Origin: an uncultured Alphaproteobacteria bacterium
Lineage (GTDB): Bacteria; Pseudomonadota; Alphaproteobacteria; RF32; CAG-239
Reading direction: 5' to 3'
NCBI GenBank assembly: GCA_910587405.1
Contig: CAJUKS010000004.1
Coordinates: 5,977-69,976 of the forward strand
DNA length: 64,000 nt
A program made the translations under genes and the position numbers. Below, piece by piece: positions 1,816-8,441 of the stretch (within the stretch, counting starts at the first letter, position 1; each line of letters begins with the position of its first letter). The notes below the pieces were generated by a model. The model saw only the letters and a program-made list of their open reading frames with translations, was not told where the DNA came from and did not search any database.

Positions 1816-2136
1816 ATGACGTGAACGGACAGCCCTGTTTTACCGGTCGCGGCATCCGATCGGAATTTTCCGAGCACCAAACCGCACCGCCGGGCAAGAC
1901 TGTCTGATTTTTCAGCAACATAAACTATTAAAAGCAATATTGCAACATCTTTTTTCAAAAATTGCCCAGACGAATCTCGGCCAAACGCACCGTATGTCCG
2001 CTTGCTTTTATGCCGACAAAAGTATCGTTGCAATCGCAATACGGCAAATTTTGTACATTTTTCACAAATAGATTGATTAAATCGCCCGGCAGGGATATAA
2101 TTATCGGAAATCAATTAATTCTTGCGGGGAAAAACA

Positions 2137-3483
2137 ATGTCCAACTCAAAATCACCTCAAATCGCAGCCGCAGCCGCCCTGATCATGGCTGCCGGAAACG
2201 GCGGCGATGCCCAAGCGGCCCAATTGATGGAACAAATGAACCAACGCCTGCAAAACAAAATGGAAAAATACGCTGCCCAAAAGCAAAAAGACGATTCCGC
2301 CGCAAGTTTCACGGAAGAAGCCGCTAAAATGGGACTGGAAGTCAACGACAGTATTCCCGATCAAAAAACGCCTTCTTATACCTTCACTCAGGACGGCACC
2401 ACCGTGGAAGACACTTATAACAACGGCAAAACTAAAAATTCGGCAACGATCAACGTCTCGCGCGCCGTCGATACGGTCGACCCCAACGCTCCGATCGTCA
2501 GCACCACCGTTCGCACCGACGAAGAAGAACTGAGTCGCCGCGGCAAAACCACCTCTACCGTAACCGCTACGGCCAACACCCTTGAAAAATTCAGCAGTTT
2601 CGGCGGCAACAGCAAACAGGAAACAAACTTTTCCCACACGCGCGAATTTGACCGTCAGGGACGGTTGCGCTCGGAAGAAACAACCCGCTTTCAAGACACT
2701 GCAAACGAAGCGGGCGCGCTTGACATCAGCCACGGCTACAATGCCGCCCACAGTTACGGCAATTTGCAAAGCCAAAGCGCAGAATTTGATGCCAAGGGCC
2801 GGACCACTTCCGAAAAAGGCCATTATGAACATCACGGCAGTTCCTCTTCCGTCAGCGACATGCAACAAAATGCGCGGCGCGGCGCTGATTTGGAAGAATT
2901 GTCTTCCGAAAACCTGAAAGGGTTGAAAAACTATACCGAAGCTGAGGCGCAAAAAGATGGTCGGAACCAGGCCGCAGCCGAGGTTAAAACCGATCGGTAC
3001 GATAAGAACGGCAAGCTGAAAAAATCTTTGTGGGGCCGCATCCGCGAAGGCGCAAGCGAAATTTACGGCAAATTCAAACAAGGCAGAAATAAGACCCAAG
3101 CCGTGGAAGTGATTTCGGAAAAAGGTAAAACAAGCGGCACCAAAATGGTTACCCGCAATGACGGCACCGTTAAAAAAACTACCCTCAGCGACCGCGCCGC
3201 CATCCGCCATTTAAAAAAGCTGCGCAACGGCGTTAACGAAAACCTCGAACGGCTTACCGGCGCCGAAAACATGGAAGAATATGCCGGCAGAGTTACCGAT
3301 GTTGACCAAGAAAAAAGAATGCCTTTGGGGCAGATCTTTGAAAGGCACGATCAAAACAAAGTCAACGAAGCCCGTGACAATCTGGACGCCGAAAACGGCA
3401 AAAAACTGGACCAGCAAAAACAAATTTCGGCAACCGACATTATGAATCATATCGTCCAGGCCAAACTGCAAAAAGGCGAATAA
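2137..3483 (+). CDS. large low-complexity (Q/K/T/N/E-rich) hypothetical protein, probably intrinsically disordered
   Basis: 449-aa ORF (453 from the first ATG at 2122) with strong compositional bias and short N-terminal hydrophobic segment; followed by hairpin structure 3506-3562. Confidence 0.55.
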   Translation: MSNSKSPQIAAAAALIMAAGNGGDAQAAQLMEQMNQRLQNKMEKYAAQKQKDDSAASFTEEAAKMGLEVNDSIPDQKTPSYTFTQDGTTVEDTYNNGKTKNSATINVSRAVDTVDPNAPIVSTTVRTDEEELSRRGKTTSTVTATANTLEKFSSFGGNSKQETNFSHTREFDRQGRLRSEETTRFQDTANEAGALDISHGYNAAHSYGNLQSQSAEFDAKGRTTSEKGHYEHHGSSSSVSDMQQNARRGADLEELSSENLKGLKNYTEAEAQKDGRNQAAAEVKTDRYDKNGKLKKSLWGRIREGASEIYGKFKQGRNKTQAVEVISEKGKTSGTKMVTRNDGTVKKTTLSDRAAIRHLKKLRNGVNENLERLTGAENMEEYAGRVTDVDQEKRMPLGQIFERHDQNKVNEARDNLDAENGKKLDQQKQISATDIMNHIVQAKLQKGE

Positions 3484-3775
3484 AACGCTGCTCTGCTTAA
3501 AATATAAAAATCTGTCGTCTTTCCTTCGCTCCCGAAGCCGGGCTTAAGGCGGCAGATTTTTATCTTGGGTTCTTTAGATTTATTTAACCATTTTCGTTTA
3601 CCCTCTTTTTCGGATATGCAACCGCGTATCTAGGGCGTCAGAAACCCTTATATCATCAGTCGTTCGCATACGACTCAAAATTTATGCCGATCTCTGTCTT
3701 GGACGGATGTCGGCTGAATAAGGCTATGCGCCCAATAGGCCGAGCCGTTTGATGATATACGGTTTCTGAACATCC

Positions 3776-3805
3776 GCCCACCCCTTCCGGTGGGTTTTGT
3801 TTTTA
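3776..3805 (+). terminator. intrinsic terminator/attenuator hairpin immediately upstream of lipoprotein gene
   Basis: cccacc-ccttcc-ggtggg stem-loop followed by TTTTGTTTTT, 24 nt before the AAGGA RBS of the 3829 gene. Confidence 0.55.
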
Positions 3806-3828
3806 ATGACTAACAAAGGATGTTTTCC

Positions 3829-4245
3829 ATGAAGAAACTGTTTTTATTTCTAATCATCGGTGTTTTTACGGCAACGCTTTGTTCCTGCGCCACCATTATG
3901 AAAGACGATACGCAAACGATCCCCATCAAGGCCAACGTCGACAAAGTAAACCTCAAAATTATGAACAAAGTCGGAGAAACCGTCTTTGAAGGACAAACCC
4001 CGACCATGATCACCCTCAAAACCGCCGCCGGCGGTTATTTCAACCCCGAAAAATATACCGTCATCGCCTCCAAAAAAGGTTATCAAACCAAAGAATCCCT
4101 CATCGACTGGCACGTCAGCGGCTGGTATTTTGCCGGCAATCTGGTTATCGGCGGCATTCTCGGATATCTGATCATCGATCCGCTGACCGGAAATATGTAT
4201 TATCTCGACGAAGCCGTTAACCTGAACATGACGCCGATCAGATAG
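3829..4245 (+). CDS. lipoprotein, unknown function
   Basis: MKKLFLFLIIGVFTATLCSC signal peptide with lipobox; AAGGA RBS. Confidence 0.6.
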   Translation: MKKLFLFLIIGVFTATLCSCATIMKDDTQTIPIKANVDKVNLKIMNKVGETVFEGQTPTMITLKTAAGGYFNPEKYTVIASKKGYQTKESLIDWHVSGWYFAGNLVIGGILGYLIIDPLTGNMYYLDEAVNLNMTPIR

Positions 4246-7121: not shown

Positions 7122-7356
7122 CTCAATTCACCTCCATACAAACAAAACGGTTTAAATATTATAGTATAATCAGGTCCTAAAAGCAAACGGTTTGTATAAA
7201 ATAAGCTTTTCTGTCTGTCGGCGCTGTATGTCAGTTTTAAATGTATTTTTTATAAAAAACGGAAAAAAGAGTGACTTTTTAAATTATTTGTTATAAATAT
7301 ATTTACAGATAGAACAGAGTAGAACGGAAATATTACCATAATAATGGGTTAATATC

Positions 7357-8151
7357 ATGACAAATACCACTGATGAATATCCTCATTCTGTAGTTTATGC
7401 CGGGACGGCTCAGCAATATAAGAGACTCAAAAAAATTTGGCATGCCATAACCAACAATGGATTATACAGACGTCTGAGAGCCTCAAGGCTGAATCCGTAT
7501 CATACGTTCTTGAGCCGGGCAGAAGCGGAAGACGTCAAAACGGCGAAGGAACTGGCTCGTGCCAAAAATCGCGGATATATTTTGTATAAAGGGACACGCA
7601 TTAGCACGGAATTGCATTGCCCGGTAGCGGAAGAATTTGAAAAATACGGTAATGTTATCCGCGGCGGTCAGGATATAACTGCCCGAATTCCCCGTAATCG
7701 TGACGGAAAGTTGGATTTAATGGCAGAAGAACCGATTGTGGTGGCAATTGTTCCGGTCGAAGGTCCGTCCTTGGTCGGGCATGCCGCCATGCAGTACAAA
7801 AACCGGGTTGTCAACCGCCGCAGTTCAATGATGGATGACGAACCGCTGTTCAAAACTTACAGCCGGGAAGCCGATTACTATTTTGTTTATTTAAGTCAAT
7901 TGGGAATAGACCCCAAACGTCTTGAACGAGAAATGGATAAAGTAAACATTCGCAAAAGCGGAAAGTATAATTTGTTTACCAACAATTGTGCCGGGGCGGT
8001 TTACAGCGTTTTCAAAAATGTGGGTGTCCGCATTAACCTTTTTGGTCCGGATCGTTTGGGATTAACCATAGCAACACCGGGAAACAACCCGTTTGGTTTC
8101 GGTATAGAAAATTGGTGCAGAAGACACGGCGTGCATGTTCATGCAAAATAA
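7357..8151 (+). CDS. hypothetical protein with possible His...Cys catalytic pair (VGHAAMQY ... LFTNNCAGAVY)
   Basis: 264-aa ORF divergent from the metalloprotease gene; motif arrangement reminiscent of permuted papain-like/LRAT-type enzymes but not assignable. Confidence 0.5.
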   Translation: MTNTTDEYPHSVVYAGTAQQYKRLKKIWHAITNNGLYRRLRASRLNPYHTFLSRAEAEDVKTAKELARAKNRGYILYKGTRISTELHCPVAEEFEKYGNVIRGGQDITARIPRNRDGKLDLMAEEPIVVAIVPVEGPSLVGHAAMQYKNRVVNRRSSMMDDEPLFKTYSREADYYFVYLSQLGIDPKRLEREMDKVNIRKSGKYNLFTNNCAGAVYSVFKNVGVRINLFGPDRLGLTIATPGNNPFGFGIENWCRRHGVHVHAK

Positions 8152-8410
8152 ATGCGCGACTTGTATAAGTACAATAATAATCTGCAAAAACGGAATCCTT
8201 TGGAAATAGCCCTGATAAAAAGCCGTTACGAAAGCTTTAGAGGACGGTAAAAACTGATGCTGCCTGAGACAGGCTTATTAACCGCAAATATAACGCCTGT
8301 CAACATGCGTTTCCGCTAACATATCCAGTATAAAATTCCGTTTCCGCCCGCCTTTCGCGGGTAGGTAAACTCATTTCCCCGTGAGTTCTTGTCAACTTTT
8401 CCATATGCCA

Positions 8411-8436
8411 TAAAAAAAACGCCCTTCCGGACGTTT
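8411..8436 (-). terminator. rho-independent terminator directly 3' of tRNA-Trp
   Basis: minus-strand aacgucc-GGAA-gggcguu hairpin followed by U8 (plus-strand A-run 8412-8419). Confidence 0.6.
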
Positions 8437-8441
8437 TCTTA

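Follow-up and report, generated by a model that had tools for sequence, protein, structure and literature searches.

The 64,000-nucleotide (nt) stretch of contig CAJUKS010000004.1 analyzed here (assembly GCA_910587405.1, positions 5,977 to 69,976, from an uncultured alphaproteobacterium of the RF32 lineage; hereafter the window) carries 6,626 bp of DNA, positions 1816 to 8441, between tRNA-Trp and secE. We conclude that this block is probably an array of accessory modules, decayed, immobile, and passed on vertically, at a hot spot for insertion at tRNA-Trp. The preliminary description of the locus, made from the letters alone, had given the same separation of about 6.6 kb and had read the block as a genomic island inserted at the tRNA gene's 3' end. 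The use of that tRNA end for insertion is borne out in the same species and in relatives; the block itself is a mosaic and not one island. The tRNA-Trp gene (anticodon CCA) is the sole tRNA in the window according to ARAGORN, as confirmed by Rfam, and it has its own intrinsic terminator, as had been proposed: positions 8400 to 8450 of the minus strand fold with −25.4 kcal/mol (z = −5.6), and a U-run follows.

An arrangement with tRNA-Trp directly before secE-nusG is indeed the norm that the preliminary description took it to be. About 46 of the 53 outgroup loci have the tRNA 207 to 653 nt before nusG, and the exceptions in which it still lies upstream are Bradyrhizobium loci with gaps of 2 to 4 kb. 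These loci indicate that the adjacency is the ancestral state. Our comparison set within the gut clade (loci L005 to L027) consists of alphaproteobacterial metagenome-assembled genomes (MAGs) from the gut, with NusG proteins from 94% down to 65% identical to that of the window; the public loci identical to the window come from gut MAGs as well. One further locus, L004 ('uncultured Azospirillum sp. UMGS149'), has an identical NusG, and because its DNA is about 89% identical to the window we treated it as a sister species. Among the 12 gut-clade loci with the tRNA upstream in the right orientation, the gap ranges from 233 to 9,013 nt and is canonical only in L023. In L006 and L007, the window's flanks are retained (yicC-gmk-lptG-tRNA-Trp at one end and secE-nusG-mscL at the other), but the gaps between them, 6.6 and 4.0 kb long, share none of its genes. 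Over about 25 species, 107 of the 164 open reading frames (ORFs) in the interval have no counterpart in any other interval. Taken together, these comparisons indicate that the gap between tRNA-Trp and secE is a hypervariable insertion site in the gut clade. Conservation of the gene content across the family would have spoken against an island; the content is not conserved, and the idea survives that comparison. The upstream neighbor of tRNA-Trp differs between subclades, and the literature on RF32 gut alphaproteobacteria gave nothing specific to this locus. In L005, the closest other species (NusG 94% identical), tRNA-Trp stands inverted at the contig end, 1.7 kb from secE (positions 1 to 1312), with a DnaB_C helicase gene between the two; the arrangement reflects a real inversion or else misassembly at a repeated attachment (att) site.

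How, then, does DNA enter this junction? The most direct view comes from strains of the same species. L085 and L090 (about 99% identity to the window) contain a 4.06-kb cassette exactly at the tRNA 3' end (listed for L085 at 11086 to 15182) that encodes MarR, a MacA-like adaptor, and MacB, but no integrase, and that brings a terminator of its own for the tRNA. On either side of the cassette stands a copy of the tRNA's last 18 nt, ATCTTACTGCCCCTGCCA. The same marR-macAB cassette is present in L088, where the contig ends before the tRNA-side copy, and the site is empty in L086, L087, and L089, as in the window. The 18-nt core is also repeated in L007, L011, L017, L020, and L093. In L004 and L093, a longer displaced tRNA fragment of roughly 50 nt, from the anticodon arm to the CCA end, terminates phage-like DNA; it is a second, anticodon-type att site in tRNA-Trp. 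L093 (NusG 86% identical) still has the fragment next to a gene for a 199-aa tyrosine recombinase (Pfam Phage_integrase, E = 3e−18), followed by three small ORFs, a homologue at 63% identity of the window gene hexxh336, a lipoprotein gene, and a degenerate tRNA 3' end, all in the same interval. L004 has the fragment and the following 190 nt in common with L093 and has lost the recombinase. As read from these repeats, insertion at the tRNA end is shown in the gut clade: some elements use the last 18 nt (from the T-loop to CCA), and a prophage uses the roughly 50-nt block from the anticodon arm. The phage-like right end together with the 190 nt (L004, 24 to 406; L093, 5350 to 5732) is 89% identical between the two species, in which local core genes are 80 to 84% identical, and this suggests that the element spread horizontally in recent times.

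Besides these, several relatives contain tandem cassettes with conserved ends (L008, 7754 to 9374; L011, 980 to 1661; L017, 7033 to 8403; L025, 358 to 1506), and L010 has one copy of the cassette end. Each tandem unit consists of the tRNA-end core, a terminator, a TATAAATCAAG box, a hairpin-forming motif B (GAGTCCGTGTGAGG...TTACACGGAC), usually a single ORF, and a right end, AGTCCGTGGATT, that is joined to the core of the unit after it. The integrase-less cassettes of the relatives are 0.75 to 4 kb long and often hold a single ORF. Serine recombinases are encoded in the intervals of L010 and L012. Some variants of motif B hold their stem only via G-U pairs on the tRNA strand, and the motif also occurs three times at an unrelated locus (L095). 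In the window, the tRNA terminator is followed directly on its 3' side by another conserved noncoding element, motif A, which we found in at least eight related species (L006, L007, L008, L011, L017, L019, L020, and L093); in relatives, it is the sequence pushed away from the tRNA upon cassette insertion. At its start, motif A has the tRNA 3' end in degenerate, inverted form, and the two or three hairpins within it have stems that vary among species. RNAalifold recovered only the first hairpin and no compensatory changes, and hence a claim that motif A is a structured RNA is not justified. In Rfam, the tRNA was the only match for the window and for motifs A and B.

These insertions match the published picture of islands in tRNA genes, in which the tRNA is regenerated, a fragment is displaced, and att sites are of T-stem or anticodon type (PMC4383910), and of tandem accretion followed by decay into integrase-less cis-mobilizable elements (CIMEs), as in elements related to ICESt1 (PMC5704250). 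The likeness lies in the location at the tRNA 3' end and, in the relatives, in the regenerated tRNA with a displaced 3' fragment for each element, the use of T-loop and anticodon-arm sites, the tandem arrays, and the integrase-less units that keep both att sites. Unlike Islander or CIME elements, the window block has neither fragment nor integrase and is residue only, and the cassettes of the relatives differ from such elements in being very small and in sharing noncoding ends (motif B and AGTCCGTGGATT) that match no Rfam family. Like an island in the Islander sense, the block directly follows an intact tRNA gene on its 3' side: it starts 290 nt beyond the tRNA-Trp 3' end, and the orientation logic is that seen in the relatives. 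The window has no displaced tRNA fragment at the far end of the block, and no cassette-end motif is found there either; displaced fragments do accompany other insertions at the site (L085, L090, L004, L093, L007, L011, L017, and L020). A search of the window for further copies of the tRNA 3' end, which tolerated as many as 3 mismatches over 18 or 25 nt, detected none. The window contains no insertion sequence (IS) element or integrase, there is no Pfam integrase among the seven proteins of the block, and tblastn searches of the 64 kb with the recombinases of the relatives gave no matches. The absence of integrase, IS element, and direct repeat noted in the preliminary description is thus confirmed. 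Att repeats at both ends, as expected of a CIME, are present around the marR-macAB cassette of L085 and L090, and the window has one core. With respect to content, the locus differs among relatives as an island should: L006 and L007 hold unrelated DNA, and L023 and the outgroups have no insert.

The block itself varies in pieces. The segment with o448 is missing in L084 to L090, which are at least 98.6% identical to the window, and the segment with lipo138 is missing in L004. The segment nearest the tRNA (7188 to 8440) is replaced in L004 by 1.55 kb of unrelated DNA with an outer-membrane barrel pseudogene and a gene remnant, and one boundary of the replacement falls exactly at the tRNA 3' end. 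The gene hexxh336 has a nonsense mutation in L085-type strains and a frameshift in L004. Truncated genes in L084 (GCA_018263635.1, 1.79 Mb, the only near-complete contig of the window species) were considered as a further sign of decay and rejected, because nusG, lptG, and ileS are also broken there, which marks an error-rich assembly. These differences indicate that the block is mosaic, composed of no fewer than four or five modules that vary independently. Its composition is uneven: the GC content at third codon positions is 0.57 in o448 and 0.59 in o352, consistent with host-like codon use, and 0.44 in hexxh336 and 0.45 in o264, which are atypical, although other genes of the window deviate as much as these two. 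The overall GC content of the block is slightly lower than that of the whole window (45.6% versus 48.2%). A compositional deviation of the kind that the preliminary description proposed to look for may exist in the half with hexxh336 and o264 and is absent from o448 and o352. Between the window and L004, the synonymous divergence (dS) of the shared block genes is 0.27 to 0.41, within the 0.09 to 0.49 of the flanking genes, which indicates that these genes were already present before the two species split and are vertically inherited with the flanks. Their ratio of nonsynonymous to synonymous divergence (dN/dS) is 0.13 to 0.26, compared with 0 to 0.06 for nusG, secE, and mscL; these values indicate that the block genes are real and under relaxed purifying selection.

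We hypothesize that an insert restores the tRNA each time from the copy of the 3' end that it carries, along with a new terminator, and that each new arrival would push the earlier ones toward secE. Integrases and att repeats would decay afterward, leaving useful or harmless cargo behind. The 6.6 kb of the window would then be the residue of such insertions, made up of five units that differ in age and composition, and it is probably no longer mobile and still being trimmed by deletions and nonsense mutations. That the genes of the window themselves arrived by tRNA integration is something we infer; the single direct hint of mobility for any of them is the hexxh homologue in the integrase-bearing islet of L093.

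Several points weigh against this reading. The window block carries no displaced tRNA fragment, cassette-end motif, or recombinase gene of its own, and its origin by integration is therefore deduced from the relatives. Motif A is directly beside the tRNA in the window and the block lies on its far side, so that the block was not brought by the most recent use of the 18-nt core. Two of its genes, o448 and o352, look native in composition, and homologues of o264 occur in ordinary core neighborhoods elsewhere, for example between def and a B3_4 gene in L091. In addition, most of the relatives are MAG contigs, in which mobile DNA is prone to misassembly. Part of this would also fit resident, lineage-specific DNA, in which fast-evolving native accessory genes would lie in a gap that grew by rearrangement, duplication, and deletion. 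In favor of this, att repeats and an integrase are missing from the window, codon use in o448 and o352 resembles that of the host, block and flanks diverged together, a distant o448 homologue sits at the same spot in L019, and the varying upstream neighbor of tRNA-Trp shows that rearrangement is common. We nevertheless regard a purely native origin as unlikely: tRNA-end repeats of 18 and roughly 50 nt bound insertions at the exact site in the same species and genus, a homologue of the hexxh gene occupies an islet that has an integrase and is bordered by tRNA fragments, lipo138 is a member of a phage family, and hexxh336 and o264 are atypical in composition. Least probable of all, and very unlikely in our view, is a single island that arrived in one event and later lost its integrase and repeat. 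The block is contiguous and adjoins the tRNA 3' end, and o448, o352, o116, tm72, and hexxh336 are collinear in L004; against one event, its halves differ in composition, three segments vary independently, homologues of o264, of hexxh336, and of the o352-o116 pair occupy separate loci in other species, and the five transcription units are separate, each with its own promoter-like or terminator-like sites.

Two other proposals concern what the array does and how it is supplied. The preliminary description saw secreted or effector-type cargo, and a broader version of this idea holds that the genes are weapons or shields, either effectors against host cells or rival bacteria or toxin-antitoxin or antiphage modules such as tend to gather at hot spots of integration. 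Such a function may coexist with an accretion array at the tRNA, and we consider it doubtful. Signal peptides and membrane segments are absent from five of the seven proteins (o448, o352, o116, hexxh336, and o264), which leaves secretion of the cargo as a whole unsupported; lipo138 and tm72 are the only envelope proteins in the gap. A PADLOC scan of eight proteins at E ≤ 0.01 gave no matches, no secretion-system genes and no immunity-like partner of o264 are visible, o264 homologues stand among housekeeping genes elsewhere, and the dN/dS values above give no sign of positive selection. Moreover, the viral contigs of IMG/VR contain no relatives of o264 or hexxh336. The more speculative proposal, which we would not favor on present data, is that tRNA-Trp serves as a gene-capture platform in the gut clade, where small integrase-less cassettes (terminator, TATAAATCAAG box, motif B, one ORF, and AGTCCGTGGATT with the 18-nt tRNA end) would be inserted, stacked, and excised in an integron-like manner by a recombinase encoded elsewhere. 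The window block would then be the fossil of an array, and o264 and the hexxh enzymes would be exchangeable genes for conflict or host interaction. A resident integron-like integrase was looked for beside the tRNA and not found; the 5' neighbors are housekeeping genes.

The features of the locus are collected in Table 1. We count seven credible genes in the gap instead of the eight ORFs originally described, and all seven are also called in independent public assemblies: six of the exact protein sequences occur on 84 to 176 public contigs each, and lipo138 is called as a 138-aa gene in independent assemblies. As the preliminary description stated, none has a housekeeping identity, and no gap protein exceeds the threshold of a Pfam or NCBIfam profile. 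The genes form five transcription units (o264, hexxh336-tm72, o352-o116, lipo138, and o448). The spacer between hexxh336 and o264 is as AT-rich as had been reported. Public gene calls start secE at about 1785.

Table 1. Features of the tRNA-Trp/secE-nusG junction in the window, in order of position
Feature	Position	Strand	Description
mscL	436-933	-	Same strand as secE and nusG
nusG	1042-1581	-	Pfam NusG on identical public loci; tblastn
secE	1588-1815	-	Pfam SecE on identical public loci; tblastn; distal boundary of the variable zone
o448	2137-3483	+	Soluble protein, divergent from secE; on 1,577-bp segment 1975-3551
lipo138	3829-4245	+	Signal peptide, LCSC lipobox, C-terminal hydrophobic segment; on indel 3720-4270
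o352	4367-5425	+	First gene of a conserved two-gene module; host-like codon usage
o116	5427-5777	+	Second gene of the module; starts 1 nt past the o352 stop
tm72	5884-6102	-	Small membrane protein with two hydrophobic segments; 8 nt downstream of hexxh336
hexxh336	6111-7121	-	Predicted M48-like zincin metallopeptidase; no signal peptide; atypical composition
AT-rich divergent intergenic region hexxh336/o264	7122-7356		27.7% GC; promoter-like sites on both strands
Segment with motif A, o264, and AT-rich spacer	7188-8440		Replaced in L004 (blastn; L004 ORFs)
o264	7357-8151	+	Predicted permuted papain-like (NlpC/P60-LRAT-PPPDE type) His/Cys enzyme; no signal peptide
Motif A	8339-8405	-	Conserved, noncoding; hairpin at 8368-8388; directly 3' of the tRNA-Trp terminator
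Intrinsic terminator of tRNA-Trp	8406-8441	-	Hairpin and U-run
18-nt att core	8442-8459	-	The tRNA's 3'-terminal 18 nt with the CCA; reads ATCTTACTGCCCCTGCCA on the tRNA strand
tRNA-Trp (anticodon CCA)	8442-8517	-	ARAGORN; Rfam tRNA, 69.8 bits

Structure prediction, which the preliminary description had suggested for each orphan protein, yielded folds for o264 and hexxh336, and sequence searches against the PDB gave no matches for o448 and o352. In the predicted structure, o264 has a papain-like fold in which the catalytic His precedes the catalytic Cys, as in the permuted NlpC/P60, PPPDE, and LRAT proteins. We therefore predict that it is a permuted papain-like His/Cys enzyme, either a hydrolase or an acyltransferase. 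It has no significant sequence match to any Pfam, NCBIfam, or PDB family and, unlike the members of that superfamily (YiiX/C92, TseH, PPPDE/DeSI, LRAT/PLAAT, and MARTX RID), has an extra N-terminal region of roughly 120 residues and invariant PGNNP and WC motifs. Among curated profiles, the best for o264 was Pfam Lnb_N with E = 0.011, under the cut-off, and NCBIfam had none; the family profile matched no PDB sequence, tblastn found no relative in phage genomes, and a fold search of BFVD returned nothing significant. A TAA codon at 8149 to 8151, in place of the GAA of other alleles, shortens the window allele. Beyond it, the window can still be read through the 32 codons that follow in the 297-aa allele, up to a TAA at 8248 to 8250; the shortening looks like a nonsense mutation of recent date, with loss of a tail that is poorly conserved. 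Homologues of o264 are encoded at other loci in other species. In L091 (309 to 2258), a 649-aa ankyrin-repeat protein is encoded about 5.7 kb upstream of the o264 homologue, and this protein of a eukaryote-like type hints at host interaction in the lineage.

The second enzyme, hexxh336, is predicted to be an M48-like zinc peptidase with a zincin fold, on which the model places the HExxH motif and a downstream Glu ligand as in family M48. Its score against Pfam Peptidase_M48 is 14 bits, under the cut-off of 20.3, and only a distant relative, P0175, exceeds this cut-off (21.2 bits). Unlike the M48 proteins HtpX, Ste24, and BepA (BepA/YfgC), hexxh336 lacks both a signal peptide and membrane segments. 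Its family is a tiny one of 58 representatives. The neighboring tm72, which is probably cotranscribed with hexxh336, was found only in the window species and in L004 (79% identity).

The remaining genes are less readily placed. o448 has 448 residues when read from its ATG, and with 10% A, 9% K, and 8% E it is not strongly low in complexity, contrary to the 449-aa low-complexity protein first described. Its homologues are 85% identical in L004 and 29% identical in L019, where the gene adjoins secE. A 352-aa ORF runs antisense to o448 (2152 to 3210, minus strand); it is almost certainly spurious, as public gene calls and dN/dS favor o448 on the plus strand. lipo138 matches the phage family phrog_6823 (E = 9e−30) and resembles the lipoproteins of P22/epsilon34-like phages, with 31 to 33% identity to epsilon34-like phage proteins, but no prophage surrounds it in the window. 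o352 has only 5 homologue clusters; the homologues of o352 and o116 are adjacent in L096 at a different locus, with 44% and 39% identity.

Our analysis offers a worked example, from a little-studied uncultured gut lineage, of how the universally conserved tRNA-Trp/secE-nusG junction may turn into a lasting site of accretion. Features of this kind are already known; here one occurs in a new lineage, at a usually invariant junction, and it leaves general principles unchanged. It also provides the first fold-level assignments, both of them predictions, for two unnamed families, a widespread one of permuted papain-like Cys/His enzymes and a rare one of M48-like peptidases. In practice the gain is modest: in the annotation of these MAGs, the interval should be treated as accessory and not as core. 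The 18-nt tRNA-Trp core and the cassette ends could serve as handles for locating the responsible integrase.

The surroundings of the junction show further departures from the usual gene order. The window species has mscL and a 73-aa ORF inserted in the order between nusG and the genes rplK-rplA-rplJ-rplL (window, 1 to 1041; L001, 2439 to 3686), and hence the usual adjacency of nusG and rplK is also broken; across most of the gut clade, nusG is followed by mscL. On the tRNA's 5' side, a small XRE-type helix-turn-helix gene, hth85 (8948 to 9205, plus strand), is located between tRNA-Trp and lptG (region 8518 to 9259). In L006 and L007, the gap from lptG to the tRNA is only about 75 nt, and the region of hth85 is thus a second, smaller insertion.

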